Shown here one piece after another: positions 2,557 through 21,488 of a stretch of DNA of 25,100 nt. The notes beneath the pieces are model-generated. The model made no database searches. It saw only the letters and a program-made list of their open reading frames with translations, and was not told the DNA's origin. Both the position numbers and the translations under genes were made by a program. Position 1 is the stretch's first letter. Every line of letters begins with the position of its first letter. Origin of the DNA: a virus (lineage: Duplodnaviria; Caudoviricetes); the IMG/VR virus record IMGVR_UViG_3300029891_000071, positions 1-25,100 of that record. The stretch is one strand, 5' to 3'.

Positions 2557-3474
2557 TTATGCGATGGTTCCGGCAATCAGGTATCCGGCAACATCAGCAA
2601 TCAGCTTACAGGTGAATAAGTCTGAAACTTCGATCATGTCGCCTTTTCGGGCTTCCTCTCGCCATCTTCTGACTTGTCTCTTGTTGACTCTAATTGTAGT
2701 CCCCAGGCTGAGTGTTCTACGGCCTAAGCTTGGCGCAACGTAGCAGATGACCGTGTTCTTGCCAAAAATGTAATTCATGCTTTCGGTAAGTCCGGCGTAG
2801 GCTGTATTTTCTACTGCCTTTGCCTCAACTACTTTCAGGCCCAGTATCTTTGGTGGTAACCCCGCATCAGTCAGAAGGGAAGGATCAACATGCTTTCTTA
2901 AATCCTTGATCTCCGGATGCAGGGATAGTGTCTCTGCAACGTCTCCACCCAGGATGATTGTGTTGGCTTCTCTGCCAATGTTTTGACGAACGGAAGCCTT
3001 GGCTGTCTTAATATTGCTGAGTGGCACTGAGTTTGTATAATCAGACCACTGAGAAGTTCCCGACAAAGTAGTATTCTTTGTCATTTTTGTGGTCGAGGTA
3101 AGTAAGTCAGCCATTGACTTTTCAAGCCGAAGCATGATGATGTCCGTTAGAAATTCGGTAATGTCAATGTCCAGCTGTAGTGCCGGGTCTGCGTTTTCCC
3201 GGGCTCTGTCAGTGACAATGTCCTTCAAAGCATGCTCTTCAACTATGTAAGAGTCAGTTGATAGTGTAAGCGACGCTTCATTGGCTTCTGCTCCGTCCGC
3301 TCTTATGGTCTCAGGAAGCTTGAAGGCTTCCTTTCCATAAACGAAATGTTTATCGCTTTCCTTGGTTACCCGAAGGACAGGTAAGACCTGTTCAGCGACA
3401 AGCGCAGCATTCTTATACATTATTGAAATGTTTGACAACGCTGCGTCAACATGAACTTCACTTTTGCTTAACAT
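2557..3474 (-). CDS. major capsid protein (HK97 fold; Mu gpT / lambda gpE-like class)
   Basis: HVDAALSNISIMYKN..VAEQVLPVLRV N-terminus, LSGTSQWSDY, ANTIILG; position after protease and decoration genes; AGGAGG RBS. Confidence 0.85.
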   Translation of the reverse strand: MLSKSEVHVDAALSNISIMYKNAALVAEQVLPVLRVTKESDKHFVYGKEAFKLPETIRADGAEANEASLTLSTDSYIVEEHALKDIVTDRARENADPALQLDIDITEFLTDIIMLRLEKSMADLLTSTTKMTKNTTLSGTSQWSDYTNSVPLSNIKTAKASVRQNIGREANTIILGGDVAETLSLHPEIKDLRKHVDPSLLTDAGLPPKILGLKVVEAKAVENTAYAGLTESMNYIFGKNTVICYVAPSLGRRTLSLGTTIRVNKRQVRRWREEARKGDMIEVSDLFTCKLIADVAGYLIAGTIA

Positions 3475-5700: not shown

Positions 5701-5729
5701 ATAATACACGCAAACCTTTAATTTGTCAA
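5701..5729 (-). promoter_or_regulatory. sigma70 promoter for the protease-capsid unit
   Basis: TTGACA (5729-5724), 17 nt, TATTAT (5706-5701). The -35 contains the TGA stop of the upstream gene. Confidence 0.7.
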
Positions 5730-7225
5730 GCTTTGAAGTTAAAATATTTCTGAACTGAGCTATCTGGATGTTGCCAGAGCATTTCTATATTCTCTTTTTC
5801 AGCTTTTTCCGCTTCTTTTTCAAGATTGTGAGTTTCTGTATAGGGTCTTTGTTCATTGGGTTTAAACATAGCCCACATCATTTCTTCTTCTCCTGCTCTT
5901 GTATATTTAGTAGGTCGGGGGATGTTAGTAATTATCCATCTGCCGGCGACGGTTTTTTCTTGTTTCCATTTAGGATCAGGAGTAAGAAAAATTTCATTAA
6001 AATCTGATTTGGATGTTCCCCACCGGGCAGTGCCTGAAGAAATTATTTTAAACTCTGCGGGTTGATGGACTGTGGCGCCTATACCGCCGGGTGGAATTTT
6101 GCCTTCAACCTTAAGCCAAGCAGAAGGCTGTTTCAGTTTTTGCTCTACGAGGATTTGAAAATCTTTTGTCTGGCTTGGATCTCGCGGATATAAAAACCGA
6201 TTGTATTTTGTCTCGGCGTATTTGGCTTGTGGCCCTTCAAGCTCTTCTGCCGTCAGTGATGGAGTGTCGAGCGTCCAGCCTACAAGATGGCCGTTTGCTT
6301 CGAGTCTGAGATCGACATGCAGGCTGTCGCCTCGAAAATGTAATTGTGCTACGTATTTAAAATTCGTATCCTTTGGTTGCCGGACGATAAACCAATTCCC
6401 TTTTTCCTTTTCTTGCTTTAAAACCTCTTGTCTTGTCGGCTCGTCTTCTGTTTGCTTTTCTGTAAATTCTTCTGATAGGAATTTAACGTTTCTGACAAAT
6501 ACTTGTGGCCCCTGTTTTTGCTCATACTTTTTTGGTGAGTCGTAAAGCCTTATTATTTTAACTTTATAGAGATAAAGTGTGTCATAGTCTCTCCACCATT
6601 TTAACTTCTCGGCTTCTGAGATTTTATGCTCCTCGTATCTGGCTTTAAATTCTTTGGTAGAAATCTTAACAGGTGGTTTCAGTTTGATTATTCCATAGCA
6701 CAAGTCGCCTGAGAGTAGATATAGTTGAGTGTCTAAATGTTGTTTGATGTCAAATGATTTGACAATTGCTGTTTTCTTGCCTTTCGCAATTAATTCTCCG
6801 TGTGGAGGAGTCAGGTATAACCCGACTTGGTGGAGAAGTGCCGGTTCACTTTCTGTGACTGGCTCAGTTTGTTTGATTACTTTGATGCTGCTTGGCACGT
6901 GGACAGCATCAGCCGTGAGCATACATTTAATCTCGGTTCCTTCCGGGTCAATGAAAGTCTGAGCGTTTGGATTGGATTTGAGATAATCAAGCAGTTCTAT
7001 TTCGTTTAGAATAATTATTGGTTTATTTGGGTCTGTATTCTCTGGTGGAATAATTGTCTCAAGTTCTTGGTGCTCTTGCAATTCTTGGCAAGTAACTGTT
7101 GTTTCTGGAACTGCTTTTTTGTCGCTGTAGATTTCTTGCAGGATTGATTGTGGTGCGAGCGTGTCTATTCTTTTTTTCAGCTCTGTTTTGATTGCCTGCT
7201 CTAAAAGTGATGGTGAATTAACCAT
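5726..7225 (-). CDS. multidomain protein: ASCH/PUA-like domain plus LigD-type 3'-phosphoesterase (PE) domain
   Basis: GLYLTPPHGELIAKGKKTAIVKS resembles the ASCH P..(L)I..GxK motif. YVAQLHFRGDSLHVDLRLEANGHLVGWTL resembles the LigD PE QxH...HxDxRLE...LxxW metal-binding motif. Confidence 0.7.
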   Translation of the reverse strand: MVNSPSLLEQAIKTELKKRIDTLAPQSILQEIYSDKKAVPETTVTCQELQEHQELETIIPPENTDPNKPIIILNEIELLDYLKSNPNAQTFIDPEGTEIKCMLTADAVHVPSSIKVIKQTEPVTESEPALLHQVGLYLTPPHGELIAKGKKTAIVKSFDIKQHLDTQLYLLSGDLCYGIIKLKPPVKISTKEFKARYEEHKISEAEKLKWWRDYDTLYLYKVKIIRLYDSPKKYEQKQGPQVFVRNVKFLSEEFTEKQTEDEPTRQEVLKQEKEKGNWFIVRQPKDTNFKYVAQLHFRGDSLHVDLRLEANGHLVGWTLDTPSLTAEELEGPQAKYAETKYNRFLYPRDPSQTKDFQILVEQKLKQPSAWLKVEGKIPPGGIGATVHQPAEFKIISSGTARWGTSKSDFNEIFLTPDPKWKQEKTVAGRWIITNIPRPTKYTRAGEEEMMWAMFKPNEQRPYTETHNLEKEAEKAEKENIEMLWQHPDSSVQKYFNFKA

Positions 7226-8250: not shown

Positions 8251-10545
8251 TCATTTGTCTATTGGAGAAATCAGATGTATCAGTTTGTCAATCATTTCCG
8301 GTGTAATTCTTCGTCCTTTATATTCGATGTATTCATCTGTGACGATGAATATCTCTTCGTTGGTTTTGACAGATTGGTCAGGATGAGTGGTTCTAAGGCT
8401 GACGTTTTTGGTAGTTCTGATAATAGTTGGTGTTCTATTTGTTTTTTTGCTGGCCATTCTGTCTTTTATCCATTGTGGCAGTTGTTTTTTATTGATTGGT
8501 TCTTTTTCTATGTCGTTAATATAAATAAACTTTTGCCCTGATAATTTTTCTATTGCTTGGATTGCTCCATACATATCTACATTTATCTCTTTACCTAAAT
8601 AAGCATTTTTTGAATGATACGACCAAGGCGATTCATACTCTTTTTTTGGTTGGAATAGAGTAAAATTGTGGGGCGATAAAGTTGTTATATTCCCTGCTTC
8701 GTCCCTGACTTTAAGTTCAGTACTTGCTGATACATCTTCGGCATAAAGCTGGATTGCGTTTGCTGGGCTGGTGCTTGGGATTGTGCCATTTTCAAGTAGT
8801 AAGGTTCTTGTAGCCGATATGCCTGCGGCTGTGTTGCCTACTGATACGTTACCTGATACTGCGAGTTTGTTTGCGGGGACGGTGTTGTCGATGCCGACAT
8901 TGCCACCCATAATACCCATACCACCCTGATAAATATTGTTTGTCGCAAGAGCGTTAAATTCTGTTTTTCCGGAAGTCATAACTCTGTTTCCTGCGCCAGA
9001 ATTAGCAACAGCAACAAATAAACCATTGCCATAAGTGACAGAAACCCAGCCATTATCAGCAGCGCTTGTTCTGATTGTCCAGTTAATACCATCAGGAGAA
9101 GTCATAACTCTGTTTCCTGTGCCAATATAAGCAACAGCTACGAATAGACCATTGCCATAAGTGACAGAAACCCAGCCATTATTAGCAGCGCTTGTTCTGA
9201 TTGTCCAGTTAATACCATTAGGAGAAGTCATTACTCTATTTCCTGTGCCAGAATTAGCAACAGCAACAAATAAACCATTGCCATAAGTGACAGAAAGCCA
9301 GTCATTATTAACAACGCTTGTTCTGATTGTCCAGTTAATACCATCAGGAGAAGTCATAACTCTGTTTCCTGTGCCAGAATAAGCAACAGCAACAAATAAA
9401 CCATTGCCATAAGTGACAGAACGCCAGTCATTATCAGCAGCGCTTGTTCTGATTGTCCAGTTAATACCATTAGGAGAAGTCATTACTCTGTTTCCTGTGC
9501 CAGAATAAGCAACAGCAACAAATAAACCATTGCCATAAGTGACAGAACGCCAGTCATTATCAATAGCGCTTGTTCTGATTGTCCAGTTAATACCATCAGG
9601 AGAAGTCATAACTCTGTTTCCTGCGCCAGAATTAGCAACAGCAACAAATAAACCATTGCCATAAGTGACAGAAACCCAGCCATTATCAGCAGCGCTTGTT
9701 CTGATTGTCCAGTCTGTTCCTTTTGATATGATATTTCCAACGACTTCTAATTTCTCCCCCGGCGCGGTCGTCCCAATGCCGACGTTGCCGTTAAGTAAAG
9801 TATATCCTGTTCCGCTCGGAGTAAGAGTAACATTTTGATTTGTTCCGCCCGCTGTATAAGTTAAGGCTCCTGTGCCTGTAATTGAGCCTGTGCTTGTTCC
9901 TGTTCCGCCGTTAGCTAAAGGCAGAACGCCAGTTACGCCTGTTGTCAAAGGTAAGCCTGTTAGGTTAGTCGCTATACCTGAGGCTGGCGTGCCCAAAGCT
10001 GGGGTTATTAAAGTAGGCGAGTTATTGAACACTACTAATCCGCTTCCCGTTTCATCGGTTATTATCCCAGCGAGCTTGGAAGATGAATCTATTTCTGTGC
10101 TGATTATGAAATTGTCAGCGTCTGATACTTTTGTCTCAAATTCGGCTTCTGTAAAAGAATCAATATTATCGAGGATGTGATTGTGGCTGTCGTCTGCGAC
10201 GGTTGTAACGCCGATTGATGTGATTGTAACATCTCCGGTTATAGTTACTTGAGCGGCTATGTCAGAGGGGTTTCCTACTATTATACTGCCTGAGTCTAAT
10301 GAAATATCTGCGAAAGAATCCCAGGCATTGTTGTCTAAAGTATCTAATGCTTTTTGGATGTTGTCATCATCGGTTGTTAAAATTCCATCGAAGTTTGTAG
10401 TGTCTGTGCCGAAGTCGGCTGCCCATTCAGGGATGTATTCTGCCTGTGAAAAAACGAGGTCTGTTGAGCGAAAAAGTGTAAATAGTACCAGAAAAGCAAC
10501 GATGCCTATGCTGAAGAGAATGCTGAATCTTTTGTCTGATTTCAT
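8251..10545 (-). CDS. fibre/adhesin-like protein: N-terminal hydrophobic segment, six-repeat beta-propeller-like region, shared C-terminal domain
   Basis: Residues 8-25 hydrophobic; GNVGIG motifs; six 42-aa repeats with TSPDGINWT (Asp-box/BNR-like); C-terminus paralogous to 16887..18410. Confidence 0.75.
8972..9712 (-). repeat. six tandem 126-bp coding repeats
   Basis: Units begin at 8972, 9098, 9224, 9350, 9476, 9602; first and last are identical over their shared length. Confidence 0.95.
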
Positions 10546-10561
10546 TTGATTATCTCCTTTT

Positions 10562-11545
10562 TTAGCTGACTCTGAGAGGAAAGATAATTTCTGGCTTCCC
10601 CCCCATTCTTAATTCTGGTTTTATGAGTTTGCGAAGCCCAGTCACCGAAGCTGGTTTAGTTATGTCTGGCTCAATGTTTCTGAATCTTGGGAACATCCAA
10701 GCCCAATGATTTTTGTCGTCTCTGCCTTTGAATTCTAAAATATGGATGGGGGCAACGGTGATAAAATCTCCTATTTTTGCTTGATTGGAAGTTCCGTAGG
10801 TTTCTCCATATCCGTATTCGCTTGGCTTCCTTCTCGCAAAGCCCGCTCCCATATCCCATTCTGACTCTTCCTGCATATCTGCTGGTGCTAAAATGTGTTG
10901 TGATTCCATTGGTTGGAGTTTACCTTCCTCATTTAGGAAAGCTCCTCGATAGAGGAAGGTGTTTATTGGCTTACCTTTAAGACGCTTTTGCCTGATGCCG
11001 ATGACTTTCAAGGTTATTTCTAAAATTATTTTGAGTTTGCACCATTCTTTGGTGTAACCTGATAAAGAATAGATCGAGTTGGTTCTTTTTAACATGGACC
11101 CTTCAGATCCAATCTGCTTAGAAGTTTTCTGGATAGCAGTTCTTAACTCGCTATCTGTTTTAGCAATAATCGGCACGACTCTTTTAATGTGTGGTGTATC
11201 TTGCCCTAAAACTTTTCTAAGATAAGTCTGCCTCTCTGACCAGGGCATGTTGGCTAAAGAACCGATGCCTTTGTAGTAAAGAATGTCGAAGACGTTAGCC
11301 CGGATGTCCTCACCTGTCAATGGCTTCTTGCCGGCAATTATAGCCATCATCTTGTGTCTTGGTAATGGTATTCCGTTTTGATCGTGCCATACCGTTTCTG
11401 TGTCAAAAATAAGCTCATTTGGGTAGAGCTTTTTCATATCCTCAACAATACCTGGGAGATTTGAGGCGATGTCTCGGCGTTTGTCTTCGGTAAAGATTTT
11501 GACTTGATTGCCTTTACGATGGATGACGATGCGGAAGTCAACCAT
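10562..11545 (-). CDS. ATP-dependent DNA ligase core (adenylation + OB domain) lacking motif I in this frame
   Basis: Motifs III (IFDTE), IIIa (VFDILY), IV (EGSMLK), V (WCKLK) and VI (WMFPRFR) are present. It begins with FRIVIH; the KxDG lies upstream in another frame. Confidence 0.8.
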
Positions 11546-11588
11546 CGAATTTAGTTTCCACTGCGATAGTAGACTCTAAATTCGACAT
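11538..11588 (-). CDS. 16-aa mini-[19 protein letters not shown] carrying ligase motif I (catalytic Lys)
   Basis: Translated by hand. AGGAGGTG at 11604-11597 lies 8 nt before the ATG; TGA directly follows KFDG. The frame is also open back to ATG 11645. Confidence 0.7.
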   Translation of the reverse strand: MSNLESTIAVETKFDG

Positions 11589-11661
11589 TTGGGCATCACC
11601 TCCTAAGATTAATGCTGTCGCTGTGTAAATTAAGATAGTGTTCATTGAATTCAACCTTTTT

Positions 11662-11919
11662 TCATAAGAAGATAGCAATCGCTATTAGCGAAAGAACTAA
11701 AACCGCCAAAACTGTTAATGTGAATCCATCGAAAAACGAATTATTTTGGTGTGGGTTGATATTCTCTGGTGGTAATGTGTTTAACCGATTTTGTGTTTTT
11801 TTTGTGGCAGTTTTTTGTATATCCAATATATCTTTGAGTGTTTTAGTGATTTGAGAAATTACTATTTCATGTTGATTAAGTTTCACGTTGATTTGGTCGA
11901 TTTGCTCTTGTGTTGTCAT
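11662..11919 (-). CDS. small coiled-coil protein with C-terminal transmembrane helix
   Basis: Start revised to MTTQEQ (ATGA overlap with the upstream stop); FTLTVLAVLVLSLIAIAIFL tail. Confidence 0.65.
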   Translation of the reverse strand: MTTQEQIDQINVKLNQHEIVISQITKTLKDILDIQKTATKKTQNRLNTLPPENINPHQNNSFFDGFTLTVLAVLVLSLIAIAIFL

Positions 11920-12245
11920 TTTCGTGCCATTCCAACTAAGTTGATAATTAATGGGATGATAAATGACATAGTTCCTGCGATGCCAACTGTAGTCCATCTC
12001 CACTTTTCAAGATCTTCTACTCTTTTTTTAATGATTCTGGTGTAATCCCAAAGTTTAGAGGCTTCATTTTCAATGGCTTTTCTTGTTGCTTCACTATTTT
12101 CTGTTTTTGATTTTTCAATATCCAAAGCCAGTTTGTTTTGAACGGTTTGCAATGATTTTACGAGTTCACATAAACCATCAAGGCTTTTTTGCACGTTAGA
12201 TAACCGTTCTGAAATTACTTCAAATGATTTGAGTTCATCTATCAT
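11916..12245 (-). CDS. coiled-coil protein with C-terminal TM helix (XhlA/holin-like)
   Basis: RVEDLEKWRWTTVGIAGTMSFIIPLII pattern typical of small phage membrane proteins. Confidence 0.65.
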   Translation of the reverse strand: MIDELKSFEVISERLSNVQKSLDGLCELVKSLQTVQNKLALDIEKSKTENSEATRKAIENEASKLWDYTRIIKKRVEDLEKWRWTTVGIAGTMSFIIPLIINLVGMARK

Positions 12246-13200
12246 TTTTTAGCACCCAGTTTTCTATAAGTTTTTCAGGATCGTTGAATTCAAATTTACC
12301 ATAACCACTCCGAACTTTAAGCGGTCTAAAAGCTTTCATAAGCTCAATCTTACTGCTTTCCTCCGAAAGTTCAATATCAGGATGCCATCTAATCCCACAT
12401 TTGTCAAGAAAAAACTCTCTATCTGTCTTTGTTAGCGAGCTTTTGGTAAGCTCGGTAGTGTTCCATCTCCAGATGTCAAGGATTTCTAAAGTCTCGGATA
12501 GTTCGAGTATGGCAGGATCGGGTTTAAGTTTAGAGAAGTTGTCCTCTTCGAGTGTAAGATGCAGACTCCTGCCACACTCATCGAGTAATGCCTGTTTATT
12601 TCCCTCCCTGTGAAGGAAAATGTGGCTGTGATTTTGAAATTGTGACGGGGCTGGGCCAAAAAGAAGGAACTCATACTCAGGAGTTTGCTTGAATTGATTC
12701 TCTCTTTTGACTAAAACTAAGTCGAATAGCACAATATGCTCTCCCGTTGATCCTGCCGGATCGTAAAGGAAGTGCAGGTAGTTTTCGCTGGTCATTCTGT
12801 GCAGAGTTTTTTCAATCGCTGTACTTCTTGTCTTCTGCTTAATCAGGAGATCGATGTCGTTTGGTTTTTTGCCTTCTACTAAAGAGCCTACCAGTGAAAT
12901 AAAGCCTGGCACTAAAACTGTATTATGCAGATCGTCCAGGTTTAATTTTTTGGGAGAAAGTTTAATGGGAAGTTTAATTTTATCGAGGGATGGGTCTGCT
13001 ATGTTGTGATTTAATTTCCTGTGCTTCATTTCATCAACAATTAGCTGGTGAATGTTAAACAGGTCTTCCTTGTTCTTGCCTCCAATAATTGGTTTTCCTG
13101 TTTTTTCCATTATTGACCAGTAGGCATGAACAAGCCTGTGGTCGTTACTAAGTTGTTTTACTGTGAGATTTTTTAGATTGCTGAAATCGTTTGTTTTCAT
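12235..13200 (-). CDS. multidomain protein: His-rich helical domain, Pol-beta-type nucleotidyltransferase, degenerate ligase-like segment, ligase N-terminal segment
   Basis: ISLVGSLVEGKKPNDIDLLIK = hGS..DxD. N-terminal DHRLVH..H.LIVDEMKHRKLNH weakly recalls DenV-like helical domains. C-terminal FRPLK...ENW resembles the segment that precedes ligase motif I. Confidence 0.6.
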   Translation of the reverse strand: MKTNDFSNLKNLTVKQLSNDHRLVHAYWSIMEKTGKPIIGGKNKEDLFNIHQLIVDEMKHRKLNHNIADPSLDKIKLPIKLSPKKLNLDDLHNTVLVPGFISLVGSLVEGKKPNDIDLLIKQKTRSTAIEKTLHRMTSENYLHFLYDPAGSTGEHIVLFDLVLVKRENQFKQTPEYEFLLFGPAPSQFQNHSHIFLHREGNKQALLDECGRSLHLTLEEDNFSKLKPDPAILELSETLEILDIWRWNTTELTKSSLTKTDREFFLDKCGIRWHPDIELSEESSKIELMKAFRPLKVRSGYGKFEFNDPEKLIENWVLKNDR

Positions 13201-13201
13201 G

Positions 13202-13414
13202 TTATTTCTTGGGCAAATCGTTGTCCGGAATGTTGAATGTGTTTCTGATTAACTTACACAATGGTAAGACGGTGATGTTATCAATTTGTGTCTTTGATTC
13301 ATTTACTTTGTCTTCGATAACATCGAGTAAAGCGTCAACTGCTTTCTTTAGGGTGTCTTCGTCAATAAGGCGCAGAAGTATTTGCATTAGAACTAAAATA
13401 GTTTTATGGATCAT
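13202..13414 (-). CDS. small hypothetical phage protein, 70 aa
   Basis: AGGAGGTG RBS; coupled to the portal stop; amphipathic helices. Confidence 0.7.
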   Translation of the reverse strand: MIHKTILVLMQILLRLIDEDTLKKAVDALLDVIEDKVNESKTQIDNITVLPLCKLIRNTFNIPDNDLPKK

Positions 13415-14678
13415 GTTCGGTCACCTCCTTTTCTTTTTCTACCTGGATTGGAGCTTTTTTGAACTTCATTCCGAGTGTAGACTCTAACCATTCGACATCG
13501 ATTTCAATTTTGTCTTTACCCATCATCTGCATAACAATGCGAACGAGTTGGTCTTTTAAGTGTTTTGAGATAGTTTCAAATTCCCACTTTGGCATCGGAG
13601 CGTTTTTGCCAAAGTTCAGTTGAATAGCTTGCGGAATTATTTGTATATTGACAAAATTTTTAATATCCATCAGAATTGATTCTTCTGCGGCAATAAAAAC
13701 GTCTGCATGTTCTTTTGCTAAAGCATAAGATGCTCCGCTTTTTGGTGCAGAAAAGATTAAATCTGGAGCGAAAATCGCTCTGGCCTTCATTGTGTCTAAC
13801 TGGTCATGTCTTGCTAAGAAGTCGCCGCCTCGCCTCGTAGCTTCTAACATTTCCAAAGTCCATTTTGGGTCTTTTGTTTTTGGATCCGAATCGGAAGGAA
13901 TTACTGCTGCCGAAGAATTTTTTATTTGTTTAATGATGCCTGCCATTAGGCTGATATTATCTTCCGATGCTGTGGCTGACGTTGGCGTTCGACCTGTGGG
14001 AGCTTTGCCCAGAAGGATTGGCTGAGCGTAGCGTTCCAGGTAGATATTTTCAAAATCGTATGTGTATTGGTCGATAAACCAGTAAAAATATGCTGATCGC
14101 AGCCTGCTTCGTCCGTAGGGATTATTGAACCGCTGGTCGATATTGAAAAGTGCTGCTTTTTCTTTTGGCACTCTTACTATGCCTTTGCTGGTTGACTGTC
14201 CAAAACCATCGAAATCAAATTCTTTGGTGAGATGCAAATCGATTGTATCCGGATGGACATCAATAAATTTTTTAAATATCATGAAACCTTCATTATTGGT
14301 TTTATAGACTTTTTCAAAAGCCTGAAAGCCAAAATTAATGGCATTTAAGAGGGAAGTAATGAGGTCAAGCCAGATAGGTTCTAAAAGCTCTGTAGTGAAC
14401 TGTTGGATTTTTTTTGACTTTGGGCAAAGTATCTTCCATCGAGCATTTATGAGAGGGGCTTTGACTACGGTCAGTACTGCTTTTATCTGCCCGTCGTCTT
14501 CCATTTTCATGAAATCTCGATATGAGATTGTTTCCGGATTGTAAACCAGCCCTGCTGCCGTTCGCGGCATTAGGTTGCCGGCTGGTTCAGCAATTTGATT
14601 GAAATGCTCTTTTTTTGGCTTAGGCTTTACAGAATCGATTTTAAACTGTTTTTTTTCTTCAGTGGTCTTATCAGTCAT
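13404..14678 (-). CDS. portal protein (DUF935 / Mu gp29-like)
   Basis: MEDDGQIKAVL, AINFGFQAFEKVY, NPYGRSRLRSAY, YLERYAQPILLGK, GASYALAKEH, QLNFG; follows TerL. Confidence 0.9.
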   Translation of the reverse strand: MTDKTTEEKKQFKIDSVKPKPKKEHFNQIAEPAGNLMPRTAAGLVYNPETISYRDFMKMEDDGQIKAVLTVVKAPLINARWKILCPKSKKIQQFTTELLEPIWLDLITSLLNAINFGFQAFEKVYKTNNEGFMIFKKFIDVHPDTIDLHLTKEFDFDGFGQSTSKGIVRVPKEKAALFNIDQRFNNPYGRSRLRSAYFYWFIDQYTYDFENIYLERYAQPILLGKAPTGRTPTSATASEDNISLMAGIIKQIKNSSAAVIPSDSDPKTKDPKWTLEMLEATRRGGDFLARHDQLDTMKARAIFAPDLIFSAPKSGASYALAKEHADVFIAAEESILMDIKNFVNIQIIPQAIQLNFGKNAPMPKWEFETISKHLKDQLVRIVMQMMGKDKIEIDVEWLESTLGMKFKKAPIQVEKEKEVTEHDP

Positions 14679-14717
14679 TGGGCACCTTGAACGTGCTTAG
14701 GATTTAATTATGTAGCT

Positions 14718-16166
14718 TTACAATTGACGCAAAGCATCTAATCCTGTGTGCCGTTCTCTTAATCTTAATCTGCTCGCAATGCCGGCTGATTGCGAGGAAA
14801 TCAACTGTGGATCAAATTCTCTGTTATGCCCGGCAATTTGCCCTGTAGTAACAAAACCCTGTTCTTTGGCTGCCAGGAAGGCTAAGGCCAATGCAAATAG
14901 TGAGTCGGTTCTGAGCTTTGAGTCTTCCCATCGGTAAAATCTCAATTCCTCGAAAAGTGGTTTTATGTATGGCGAAACTATCAGGCCTTGTTCTAAGGCG
15001 CTGACCAGGTTGACTAAGATTTCAGATTTTCCGGTAGCTATAGGGCCTGTTTTGGTTGCAATCATTACTGGGTGTGGTTTGATGTCTGCAAGTTCTTCTT
15101 CAATATGCTGCGCCAGTCCGGTTGCGTCAAAATATGTCGCTATATCATGAAAATGATTGTACCGGTCGCGGATAGAGTCGTAGGTGACTTGCCATCCGCA
15201 TTTGGAAAGCCTTTGAAAAGCGACAAGTTTGAATGGTATACTTGTAACGTCCAGGGTTATTCCAACTGTAAAATCTTGCTTGATTCCGATGTCCCAGCCG
15301 GATAGATAAATATGATCTTCTTGGGCTCCTTCGAGCTGTAAAGAAGCTTCTAAAAAATTGCTTAATGCCTTGTCTGAAAAAACTGCTGATGAGAAATCAA
15401 TAAATTCGCCGTATAGATGCTGGCGAATTTGATCTTCAGTCATGTAATCTTCGTTAAAGAGCCGGTGCAAGGCAGCTTTCGATATATACGGGTTGTCTGA
15501 TGTTGCGCCCGCAATCGAGAAGCACTCTGGATTGTATGATTGGTGATTTTCGAGTCCCTTATTGAACTCGTCAAAATACCAGTTTTTTCCGTTTGGTGTT
15601 CCTGAAAAGTTTAGCTCGCCGTTTCTGTCAAGTAGCCTGGTTCTGATAAGTGGCAAAACTTCTTCCGGTCTTTTTTCAAAGGCCGGCTCATCGAAGTTTA
15701 CGAAATCAAATACATGTCCCCAGAGATTTTGAGGTCTTTCTGTTGATCTTGCCCACAGTTGTGCTCCATTTCCAAATTTTATCATTGGAAATGGCTTGCG
15801 AATTGGGTCTCCTTTCAGGCACCAGTTTAATTCTGCTCTTTTGCAGAACTCTTCGCAATGCGTGAAGATGATTCCTGCTTGATCTGATGTAATTGAAATA
15901 TTGCAAGCGATGTAATCCTCGATATTATCATATTCATCGTCTCTTATTTTGTAGATAGAATACCAAACGAGCTTTACAGCTTGAATGAGACTTTTGCCCC
16001 ACCTGTTTGCTGTAGCTAAGATTTTTTGTTTTTGTTTATAAGGCGCTGTTAGCCACTGTATTTGTTTAGGATGTGGTTTTGTTCTGCAAAAGAATTCTGA
16101 GAAAAAAACAGGATCGTACCGGCCTCTTTTCAGTGCTTCCTGAAATTGTTTTGGGATAGCTGCCAT
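14718..16166 (-). CDS. terL: terminase large subunit
   Basis: PHPKQ Q-motif, Walker A ANRWGKS, Walker B FVNFDE, SGTPNG coupling motif, nuclease GWDIG..D and YFDATG. Confidence 0.92.
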   Translation of the reverse strand: MAAIPKQFQEALKRGRYDPVFFSEFFCRTKPHPKQIQWLTAPYKQKQKILATANRWGKSLIQAVKLVWYSIYKIRDDEYDNIEDYIACNISITSDQAGIIFTHCEEFCKRAELNWCLKGDPIRKPFPMIKFGNGAQLWARSTERPQNLWGHVFDFVNFDEPAFEKRPEEVLPLIRTRLLDRNGELNFSGTPNGKNWYFDEFNKGLENHQSYNPECFSIAGATSDNPYISKAALHRLFNEDYMTEDQIRQHLYGEFIDFSSAVFSDKALSNFLEASLQLEGAQEDHIYLSGWDIGIKQDFTVGITLDVTSIPFKLVAFQRLSKCGWQVTYDSIRDRYNHFHDIATYFDATGLAQHIEEELADIKPHPVMIATKTGPIATGKSEILVNLVSALEQGLIVSPYIKPLFEELRFYRWEDSKLRTDSLFALALAFLAAKEQGFVTTGQIAGHNREFDPQLISSQSAGIASRLRLRERHTGLDALRQL

Positions 16167-16880: not shown

Positions 16881-16886
16881 TTGGCT

Positions 16887-18410
16887 ATGGCTGCGAAATT
16901 ATTTCCTTTAGACATTTACCCGGATGGGTTTCAGTTTGAAAAGCGTGGAAGACCGCGTGTAGGTGGTCTGGCTGGCAAGAAGAAAGTCTTCTTAGGCTAT
17001 GGGGCTGGTCAATCCGGAGCTGCTGGTCAGGAGAGTATTTACATTGGGTATCAGGCTGGGTATAAGAACGAAACTGGCGACTTAAATATTTTTATTGGAA
17101 ATGAAGCAGGATATTCAAATATATCTGGTTCAAACAATACTTTTTTTGGTTTTCGGGCTGGTTATTTGAATACTACTGGTTGCGGTAACACTTTTACCGG
17201 CCATTCTGCTGGTTATGCTAATACTGTTGGTTACAGTAATACTTTTACTGGCCATTCTGCTGGTTATGCTAATACTACTGGTAATAATAACGCTTTTACT
17301 GGCCATTACGCTGGTTATTCTAATACTATTGGTAATCATAATACTTTTACCGGCCATTATGCTGGTTATTCTAATACTACTGGTGATGATAACACTTTTA
17401 CCGGCCATTACGCTGGTTATTCTAATACTACTGGTACTCATAACACTTTTATTGGTTATTTTGCAGGTTTTTCTAATACTGAAAGTAGTAATAACACTTT
17501 TATTGGATATTACGCTGGTCGTGGTAATACTGCTGGTGAGGATAACACTTTTGTTGGATATTACGCTGGTCGTGCTAATACTGCTGGTAGTAATAACATT
17601 TTTATCGGATATTACGCTGGTCGTTGGAATACCGAAGGTTGTGCGAACACTTTTATCGGCCATTACGCTGGTACTAAGAATACTGAAGGTGAGGATAACA
17701 CTTTTATTGGATATTACGCTGGTTATTATAATGCTATAGGTAATCGCAACATTTTCATCGGATATTTTGCAGGTTTTTCTAATGCTACTGGCAGCTGTAA
17801 TACTTTTATCGGTTACAATGCTGGTCGTGCTAATACTGCTGGTAACAATAACACTTTCATTGGTTATTCTGCTGGTTATTTTGAGACTGGCAATAATAAA
17901 CTTTACATATCTAATTCTAATATTACAACACCTTTAATCTATGGTGAGTTTGACAATAATTTAGTTGAAATCCAAGGTTGTCTTGGTGTTGGCACCAGGG
18001 TGTTTGGAACAGATGCAGTCAACGTCTTGGCTGTCAAAAATGGAACTGTTCCCGGGTCGTCGCCGGCTGATTCAGTCCAGCTTTATGCTGAAGACGTTTC
18101 GGCAAGCTCTGAGCTGAAAGTAAGAGATGAAGCTGGAAACATTACTACTCTATCTCCTCATAATTTTAGCTTGTTCTCACCTGATGATGAAATTGAATTT
18201 CCCTGGTCGTATCATTCCATAAACGAATATTTGGGTGAAGAAATTAACGTTGATATGGCCGGTTTAGTTAAGGCTGTCGAGATTTTGACTGGCAAAAAGT
18301 TTATTTATTCCCGGAAATTGCCGAAAGCACAAATAATAGAAGAAGAAAAGGAGGTTCCACAGTGGCTGAGACAAAGAATCAAGAAAAACGAGTTACAGTT
18401 GAAGAATTAA
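16887..18410 (+). CDS. fibre-like protein with ~20 14-aa GxxNTFxGxxAGxx repeats (YadA-head-like beta-roll) and shared C-terminal domain
   Basis: Start revised to ATG 16887; 42-bp repeats; NNKLYISNS..PLIYGEF neck; C-terminus paralogous to 8251..10545. Confidence 0.8.
   Translation: MAAKLFPLDIYPDGFQFEKRGRPRVGGLAGKKKVFLGYGAGQSGAAGQESIYIGYQAGYKNETGDLNIFIGNEAGYSNISGSNNTFFGFRAGYLNTTGCGNTFTGHSAGYANTVGYSNTFTGHSAGYANTTGNNNAFTGHYAGYSNTIGNHNTFTGHYAGYSNTTGDDNTFTGHYAGYSNTTGTHNTFIGYFAGFSNTESSNNTFIGYYAGRGNTAGEDNTFVGYYAGRANTAGSNNIFIGYYAGRWNTEGCANTFIGHYAGTKNTEGEDNTFIGYYAGYYNAIGNRNIFIGYFAGFSNATGSCNTFIGYNAGRANTAGNNNTFIGYSAGYFETGNNKLYISNSNITTPLIYGEFDNNLVEIQGCLGVGTRVFGTDAVNVLAVKNGTVPGSSPADSVQLYAEDVSASSELKVRDEAGNITTLSPHNFSLFSPDDEIEFPWSYHSINEYLGEEINVDMAGLVKAVEILTGKKFIYSRKLPKAQIIEEEKEVPQWLRQRIKKNELQLKN
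17040..17895 (+). repeat. degenerate 42-bp tandem coding repeats
   Basis: aayacttttayyggmyattaygctggt core recurs every 42 nt. Confidence 0.9.
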
Positions 18411-20111: not shown

Positions 20112-20381
20112 TCAACCTTCAGGTATTTCTTGAATAAGTTTTCCCGGCCAGATATTTTCCAAGTTACTCTTGAGAAATACTGGTATCTGGTTCTGCTTTG
20201 CTACCTCGACTATATTCTCGATCCAGGCCAACTTCGGTTCATACTTTCGCCCAAAGCGAGTTAATCTTCCTATGATGATCCAATCTATTCTTAACTTACT
20301 GAGAATATAGTTAAGATTTATCTCTTCTCTGTCAATAGTTATTCCTTTACATGCATCACATAAAATTGGGGTTTTAGTGCT
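20112..20381 (-). pseudogene. C-terminal fragment of a phage Gp37/Gp68 (DUF5131)-like protein
   Basis: Open frame with no upstream ATG: IDWIIIGRLT..PKLAWIENIV..IPVFLKSNL..W..LIQEIP; bounded by an in-frame TAG at 20382-20384. Confidence 0.65.
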
Positions 20382-20474
20382 CTAACCAACTGAGCTACAC
20401 TGACTTTCGCCAGCGACAGGACTCGAACCTGTGACCCCTTCGTTATAAGCGATAACCCAACTGCTTCGGCCCTC
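20364..20474 (-). ncRNA. YrlA-like bacterial Y RNA (circularly permuted tRNA mimic), 3' end apparently truncated
   Basis: 5' GGCCGAAGCAGTTGGG; T arm ACAGG-TTCGAGT-CCTGT; 7-bp acceptor-like stem CGCTGGC-GAAA-GTCAGTG; D arm GCTC-AGTTGGTTA-GAGC; CCCAATT closes the stem. Confidence 0.8.
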
Positions 20475-21384: not shown

Positions 21385-21488
21385 TCACGTTCACCAAGTT
21401 AGCCCCACGTGATGGAGCTATCGGGAATCGAACCCGAAGGAGCAACACTATTCCTGATCACCCGTTGTCATTGGTGAATCTTTGCCCC
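21385..21488 (-). ncRNA. second tRNA-like element with Ala-type acceptor strands (permuted or degenerate)
   Basis: T arm TCGGG-TTCGATT-CCCGA, then TAGCTCC-A, a short loop and GGGGCTA; upstream GGGGCAA/TTGCTCC stem. Confidence 0.55.

Follow-up and report, generated by a model that had tools for sequence, protein, structure and literature searches.

A viral DNA ligase gene in three pieces, with the motif I lysine on a 16-residue mini-ORF and the same cut in related loci

The window, that is, the whole 25,100-nucleotide stretch of tailed-phage DNA that was analysed, carries on its minus strand a DNA ligase gene that is broken at two places, the second of which divides motif I and leaves the catalytic lysine on a 16-aa mini-ORF. 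On sequence comparison, the gene would probably encode an ATP-dependent DNA ligase made of three separately translated chains that assemble non-covalently, with the nucleophile on a micropeptide and, in the window, with coupled translation of the peptide and the core. Since a break at this same position is found in four related viral loci, an assembly of separately made chains is likely, rather than a dead gene. The original prediction had described a split into two pieces; the break at the lysine stands, while the number of pieces does not, because the ORF at 13200-12235 carries the N-terminal part of the ligase and therefore reveals a further break, about 650 nt upstream (break 1; the break in motif I is break 2). 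The features of the locus are, in the direction of transcription:

12235..13200, minus strand: piece A, with 321 aa, corresponding to the N-terminal half of the ancestral protein (alignment to the contiguous relative P0159)
11916..12245, minus strand: inserted gene 1, which lies in break 1 and overlaps the stop of piece A; its product of 109 aa has a hydrophobic C-terminus (ORF list)
11662..12003, minus strand: inserted gene 2, also in break 1; its product has a hydrophobic C-terminus and measures 113 aa if read from GTG or 85 aa if read from the ATG at 11919 (ORF list)
11595..11606, minus strand: very strong Shine-Dalgarno (SD) sequence of the mini-ORF, -17.6 kcal/mol with the anti-SD, 10 bases paired
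11538..11588, minus strand: piece B, the 16-aa mini-ORF bearing the motif I lysine (codon 11552-11550) (match to P0159; mini-ORFs of loci L001 and L112)
11544..11586, minus strand: predicted hairpin spanning the mini-ORF into the core AUG, -18.9 kcal/mol, z = -6.5, reached by 0 of 200 shuffles
11537..11540, minus strand: break 2, where TGAC, made up of the stop of piece B and one C, adds four bases to KFDG-FR after the Gly codon and before the Phe codon (sequence; Logan contig)
11517..11547, minus strand: predicted hairpin that is an alternative to the first, with TGAC and the region of the core AUG paired to bases downstream, -12.9 kcal/mol, z = -4.1
10562..11545, minus strand: piece C, 327-aa ligase core beginning MVDFR, with the motif I Arg, motifs III-VI and the OB domain (PF01068, E = 3e-19)

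Pieces A, B and C tile the 644-aa P0159 end to end, covering its residues 1-301, 308-316 and 317-634. Identities amount to 165 of 300 positions for piece A (residues 1-315), 8 of 9 for piece B (residues 8-16) and 221 of 318 for piece C (residues 4-326). Piece C alone matches PF01068 with 70 bits against a cut-off of 26.2, and also matches phrog_114; if TGAC is read as a single X step, an open 341-aa ligase is obtained, which matches the same Pfam family (DNA_ligase_A_M, PF01068) with E = 4e-23. Among named records, the ANMV-1 ligase, from an archaeal virus, is the nearest (25.6% identity), and the ligase family of the window is not described in the accessible part of PMC5512222.

At break 2 the minus strand reads directly AAA TTC GAT GGT TGAC TTC CGC ATC. 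KFDG and FR are thus in different frames, the residues of motif I (KxDGxR) being present and their continuity in one chain absent, and piece C starts at a stop/start overlap with piece B, ATGGTTGA. A Logan contig from sequencing run X1 (depth 41) contains the TGAC, spans 11200-12500 in one piece with no differences and no gaps, and is identical to the window over 9684-14800; it is a re-assembly, possibly of the same source as the window, rather than an independent sample, and a contig rather than raw reads, so that a slip of the assembly pipeline is excluded better than an artefact of the sample. Logan contigs of runs X2 and X3 included none over the junction. What had been predicted here from the letters was borne out: the 4-nt interruption isolating the lysine by the strand and the contig, the very strong SD of the mini-ORF by its pairing energy, and the intact downstream frame by its 327 open codons, in which the 17 core residues conserved in the family are all kept. 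Starting from another in-frame ATG, at 11645 (minus strand), translation could also yield a 35-aa form of the peptide (11542-11645) with a hydrophobic N-terminus and a weak SD (-4.7).

With the last approximately 35 residues of piece A (PLKVRSGYGKFEFNDPEKLIENW...) the ligase adenylation domain begins. Piece A ends with PLKVRSGYGKFEFNDPEKLIENWVLKNDR and a stop, and the same stretch runs directly into motif I in contiguous relatives. Break 1 falls in a linker, in which the distance from Trp to Lys ranges from 11 to 20 residues (measurable in 71 of 77), and its gap of about 650 nt is occupied by the two small genes with hydrophobic C-termini. The first of them, which is absent from P0159 between the corresponding residues, matches phrog_451 (no function assigned) with E = 3.5e-6; for the second, no Pfam or PHROG match was found, and neither matches a nuclease or an intein in Pfam/PHROGs. 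A test for split inteins gave no intein Pfam match on piece A or C, and the tiling leaves at most 5-7 extra residues. Piece A is 38-44% identical to P0009-P0011. Its N-terminal part, which has no Pfam match, shows by eye a GS..DxD pattern, which we take to resemble that of the pol-beta-type nucleotidyltransferases.

The AlphaFold2 model of the contiguous relative P0003 (44 sequences, pLDDT 95.6) has an adenylation and an OB fold with structural matches to DNA ligases (E down to 2e-19), the nearest being archaeal DNA ligases and human ligase I. In this model a strand at residues 28-34 (IAVEVKF) is followed by a turn at D35-G36 and a second strand at 37-44, and break 2 is therefore predicted to fall in a two-residue Asp-Gly beta-turn between two strands. 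The window core modelled alone (pLDDT 92.8) has the same structural elements, a result that has no bearing on binding. Gly follows KxD/N in all 70 intact KxDxxR motifs, and exactly 14 residues separate this Gly from the F/Y of TED in 71 of 77 intact relatives, the rest having 15-16. The motif I Lys is the adenylated residue and the motif I Arg contacts the ribose, as stated in the accessible part of PMC7470946; given these roles, the active site of the split ligase would be composite.

The surroundings of the ligase are a tailed-phage head module, with terminase, Mu-like portal, Mu-like protease and major head protein:

14718-16166: terminase (Pfam)
13404..14678, minus strand: Mu-like portal protein (PF06074, E = 4e-47)
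5726..7225, minus strand: ASCH-like and LigD 3'-phosphoesterase-like protein (ASCH E = 0.004, below cut-off; 33% identity to P0012 867-1063)
3930-5297: Mu-like protease (Pfam)
2557-3474: major head protein (PHROG search)

Ligases of this family are found in phage head modules, often fused to phosphoesterase-like, D12 methyltransferase, metallo-beta-lactamase or XkdF protease domains. The protein at 5726-7225, for which look-alikes of LigD_N were retrieved with a score of 0.88 (a lead only), is fused behind the ligase in some relatives, P0012 among them, and here a 764-aa repeat protein and a 339-aa gene lie between the two. Packaging into heads has been proposed for other enzymes in such neighbourhoods (accessible part of PMC9503650), and by analogy the window ligase may be packaged as well. 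Other observations were made in the window. A 70-aa ORF between the portal gene and piece A (13202-13414, minus strand) has an SD of -17.7, as strong as that of the peptide, and two repeat proteins (8251-10545, minus strand, and 16881-18410, plus strand) have a near-identical C-terminal segment in common. An element resembling Y RNA (YrlA), with the look of a permuted tRNA, lies at 20352-20453 (minus strand; 38.8 bits against a gathering score of 69, and not called by ARAGORN), and a fragment at 21393-21488 (minus strand) matches the tmRNA and permuted tmRNA models below threshold; ARAGORN found no tRNA.

The cut at motif I is not confined to the window. Among the best 150 representatives of the family, an intact form with a long N-terminus is seen in 125; another 7 begin shortly before motif I and 6 at the cut itself, and 12 were left unclassified; the six that begin at the cut are the window's own core, P0008 (MAFR), P0015 (MVEFSIR), P0022 and P0023 (both MGIR) and P0048 (MGVR), the start at the cut being known for P0008 and P0022 from protein sequence alone. 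DNA searches yielded 52 distinct ligase loci after removal of duplicates. Four of them are cut at motif I (L001, L112, L168 and L170), two only at break 1 (L004 and L114), and the others are unbroken at these two sites; since the metagenome and genome patterns excluded contiguous spacing, four of 52 is not a frequency. The original prediction had proposed aligning homologues to see whether the break is conserved, and it recurs in these four other loci at the DNA level and in the proteins P0008 and P0022. The insert at KxD(G)|xR measures 4 nt in the window, 10 nt in L001, 8 nt in L112, 21 nt in L168 and 18 nt in L170.

Locus L001 copies the whole layout of the window: an A-like ORF, two inserted genes, an SD, a mini-ORF (14 aa) ending in MPRIPVAIEPKFDG and a stop, 10 extra bases, and a core starting from ATGGTTGA. 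In L112 the first gap is 40 nt long and is followed by a 16-aa mini-ORF, which ends in MPKKTAIAIESKFDGI and a stop, and by 8 extra bases; the core frame has no start codon at the cut, where there is a perfect ATC-stop-ATC repeat, and the core has lost in frame about 35 residues including an OB-fold strand, which suggests damage or misassembly. The first break is absent from L168 and L170, whose long N-terminal chain ends in KFDC or KYDC and a stop, followed by an SD and by ATG-Gly-Ile/Val-Arg. Because these two cores have their own SD and ATG, they show true gene fission, and with their cut at the same turn they make a coupled split enzyme assembled in trans the best supported of the four options that the original prediction had offered. 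In every case known at the DNA level, the motif Gly is retained, at the end of the N-terminal piece in some and directly after the core Met in the others. Both chains of L168 (4968-4979) and L170 (4971-4982) end in KxDC, with Cys replacing the motif Gly, and their cores are just 47% identical.

The pattern [IV]A[IV]ExK[FY]D[GC]-stop occurs at three places in viral_contigs, all of them among these split ligase loci, and searches of viral_contigs with single proteins and with the piece A locus gave no further loci. A scan for the GAC-GG pattern retrieved 36 stretches with 14 ligase matches, none of them broken; the KxDG-x-stop pattern had no matches, and the genome_contigs pattern returned 12 stretches with one ligase, which is contiguous. 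Inteins were seen directly before motif I (L029), at the position of the motif I Arg (L193) and at motif V (P0008 and P0023). A 78-aa gene splits the upstream polyprotein of L168 (3455-3691), which is contiguous in L001, and interleaved small genes in this polyprotein are common across the family.

The number of origins was estimated from an LG+G4 tree of 22 rows, built on 166 columns of the adenylation-domain core. The group of cut forms was named before any tree was built, and the 22 rows were chosen after viewing a 53-row quick tree, which itself forces at least two changes. In the 22-row tree, whose bootstrap is not fully settled, the starred branches force at least three changes among the seven cut forms, and holding the cut forms as one group is rejected (p-AU 0.00055). 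The cut at motif I would thus have arisen in at least three separate lineages; it should be noted that the tree is unrooted, and that repeated fission and repeated fusion after fewer fissions look alike in it. P0008 groups as sister to the window core (86/90), the contiguous P0159 being next outside (82/90).

The cut cores are well conserved. In 60 contiguous references, 17 columns, which cover motifs III, IIIa, IV and V, show conservation of 90% or more; of these, all are kept in the window, L001, L112 and L170, 16 in P0022, and 15 in P0008 and L168, because the latter two sequences were trimmed at their intein. The window core agrees with P0008 at 45 of 54 conserved columns versus 66 of 112 other columns (p = 0.0016). 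Among L001, L112 and L168 dN/dS is 0.12-0.15, synonymous sites being saturated for every pair that includes the window; part of this purifying selection may be older than the cuts. Since inteins adjoin motif I in L029 and L193, our leading guess is that the recurrent cuts are scars of homing elements, or an escape from them.

The start signals differ between peptide and core. An SD at -12 or lower is found at 3 of the 434 minus-strand ATGs in the window, the peptide's among them, and the corresponding peptide SD reaches -12.0 in L001 and -15.2 in L112. At the core ATG the values are -3.3 in the window and -1.2 in L001, which amounts to none, versus -6.8 in L168 and -9.3 in L170; having no SD, the window core would depend on coupling. 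The enriched -8 overlap ATGGTTGA is common to the window and L001. In the accessible part of PMC12548453, this overlap type (NTGNNTGA) and the occlusion of the downstream start are described for translational coupling, and the -8 type is reported as enriched in coupled gene pairs. As for the predicted hairpins, none of 167 sampled stretches of the window reached z = -5. When a fixed 51-nt fold was compared, z was -5.9 in the window, -2.75 in L001, -1.3 in L112, -0.45 in L168, +1.6 in L170, +1.5 in L114 and 0 in L004, and 1 of 24 contiguous controls reached -2.55 (one further control was not located). A kink-turn reading of the UGAUG/UUGA words was dropped, as by eye these words are the extended SD and the stop.

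The following mechanism is proposed. Ribosomes would load on the strong SD, make the 16-residue peptide, stop at TGA and restart five bases back at the core AUG, so that synthesis of the core would be tied to that of the peptide. The peptide would form the beta-strand with the catalytic lysine and slot into the core sheet beside the strand FRIVIH, while the tail of piece A would complete the nucleotide pocket; Lys13 of the peptide would be adenylated, and Arg5 of the core together with motifs III-VI would carry out the remaining steps. There are arguments against a split enzyme: the hairpin at the peptide AUG could hinder initiation of the peptide itself, the new termini and the extra residues (VD) beside the active site might block nick binding, and L112 needs a one-base error, decay or another mechanism. 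We give about even chances to the fuller proposition, namely a working three-chain ligase with its lysine on a microprotein of 14-16 residues, arisen by independent fission at the same beta-turn in several lineages, in which the peptide would serve both as an AMP carrier that can detach and as an on-switch set by coupling. Searches of open full-text literature brought up no description of a DNA ligase split at motif I.

Peptide and core could instead be joined during translation by a stop-triggered ribosomal hop or +1 shift, the tRNA landing before the resume codon and restoring KxDG-xR. A stop is indeed present within one or two codons in all five DNA-level loci, the codon before the resume point has at most one mismatch to the codon before the stop (window GGT/GAC, L001 GGT/AGC, L112 ATC/ATC, L168 TGT/GGC, L170 TGC/GGC), L112, with its perfect codon match and no in-frame ATG, fits a hop better, and the upstream hairpin and the SD in the gap recall gene 60 bypassing (accessible part of bioRxiv 10.1101/2022.08.31.505936). 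However, bypass sites known from the same source have identical or third-base-wobble codons, as does one locus of the five, and near-matching codons are trivially expected from a duplicated codon. In L168 and L170, where SD and ATG are at canonical spacing, a hop would yield KxDC-xR, although Gly is present in all 70 intact motifs; an ATG is dispensable for a hop, yet the GAC-GG scan found no broken gene in its 14 ligase matches, and the break of about 650 nt cannot be bridged in this way. A simple +1 shift would add one residue in the window and three in L001 and is inapplicable to the in-frame inserts of 18 and 21 nt. The prfB-like shift that the original prediction had listed is weak, in that tRNA-Gly would have to re-pair from GGU to GUU and the product, KFDG-D-FR, would break the motif spacing. 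Joining by the ribosome is therefore doubtful. It is likewise unlikely that the ligase is catalytically dead, either as a recent pseudogene or as a core kept for a non-catalytic job with a dispensable lysine strand. In its favour, 125 of the best 150 relatives are contiguous, including P0159 (68%; the closest contiguous relative, known without its DNA), L112 looks damaged, and the ligase is probably accessory, so that its loss may be tolerated. Against it, at least three independent lineages are cut at one turn with a start signal at the cut in each, in the peptide 8 of 9 motif residues remain and its SD is of the strongest class in the window, and the core is open over 327 codons with none of its 17 conserved residues lost. 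A one-off recent inactivating insertion, also among the options originally listed, is contradicted by the four other DNA-level loci in at least three lineages.

Removal of the inserts from the RNA by a splicing-like reaction, possibly through phage end-healing and ligation proteins, appears very unlikely. Within one tight clade (L001, L112, L114 and L168) both inserts may be there or missing and differ in length, as in gain and loss of introns, L112 would be accounted for, the window has a phosphoesterase-like gene and a Y-RNA-like element, and the inserts of 18 and 21 nt follow U and end in G. To our knowledge, 4-10 nt is too short for any self-splicing or bulge-helix-bulge intron; moreover, the central 4-bp helix scored 2 of 4 pairs in L168 and in L170, with two marginal candidates at break 1, the sole common feature of the inserts is a stop, an SD and an ATG, and the fold is DNA-ligase-like with an OB domain. 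Rfam gave no intron match at E <= 1 and no intron or recoding family at the locus. Assembly or sequencing error, the remaining option of the original prediction, is hardly credible: the sequence is known from one sample, no RNA data set being listed as containing it, and the evidence comes from contigs, but a separately assembled contig of depth 41 is identical, and four other loci have the same cut with different inserts, which contradicts it. Four further ideas were dropped: quasi-palindrome repair as the origin of TGAC, which accounts for one locus only; an integron attC-like site, GTTRRRY being absent from the window; an intein remnant in KxDC, the downstream residue being Gly; and an acyl shift at the terminal Cys of L168 and L170 that would link Asp with the N-terminal Gly, an idea inapplicable to the window.

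Should the three-chain enzyme prove active, the nucleophile of a working covalent nucleotidyltransferase could sit on a peptide below the size recognized by gene callers. Cores without the motif I lysine would then not necessarily be pseudogenes, and some tiny phage ORFs would be catalytic subunits. Peptide-gated or split ligases could be built with the cut as a natural split point, and lysyl-AMP chemistry could be approached with a synthetic 16-mer, including modified lysines. Repeated fission beside a site occupied by inteins in relatives provides a testable link between homing elements and fission of active sites. If, on the other hand, ribosomes hop, the locus would contain a new short-range bypass signal.

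Compared with known ATP-dependent DNA ligases (PF01068), the adenylation and OB domains and motifs I and III-VI are all present, but two genes share motif I between them and the N-terminal segment of the domain is on a third. In the prfB +1 frameshift, an in-frame UGA is followed by C and translation continues in the +1 frame. The window likewise has an in-frame UGA and C with continuation in the +1 frame; unlike prfB, it has no slippery codon (GGU to GUU), its SD, 55 nt upstream, serves the start of the peptide, and the spacing of the motif would be broken in the product. With the T4 gene 60 bypass it shares a short stop-containing insert at an invariant Asp/Gly, a nearby hairpin and, in some loci, an SD in the gap. 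It differs in that the codons of take-off and of landing match in only one of five loci (L112; GGT/GAC in the window are unmatched), and in that the inserts, of 4-21 nt, have no shared sequence and have an in-frame ATG at the cut in four of five. Fractured genes with split inteins, in which inserted genes separate the gene pieces, are reportedly found in phage metagenomes. Inserted genes between pieces, and inteins beside motif I in L029 and L193, are points of likeness, whereas here no piece carries an intein half at either cut.

Aeromonas phage Aeh1 has a split NrdA (NrdA-a/NrdA-b around mobE; accessible part of PMC3045599) and a split gp43A/43B (accessible part of PMC2988022). There, as far as these parts of the two sources go, a phage enzyme gene is cut in a critical region and the pieces reassemble without splicing (PMC3045599; PMC2988022), as is proposed here. 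The Aeh1 pieces described there are large and have added tails, whereas here the piece with the nucleophile has 14-16 residues and the tails 0-5; in addition, the inserted ORFs have no homing endonuclease match in Pfam or PHROGs, and the cut recurs in several lineages. As in genes in pieces, the pieces are collinear with a contiguous homologue and each has its own start and stop, the core start being an overlap ATG without an SD.
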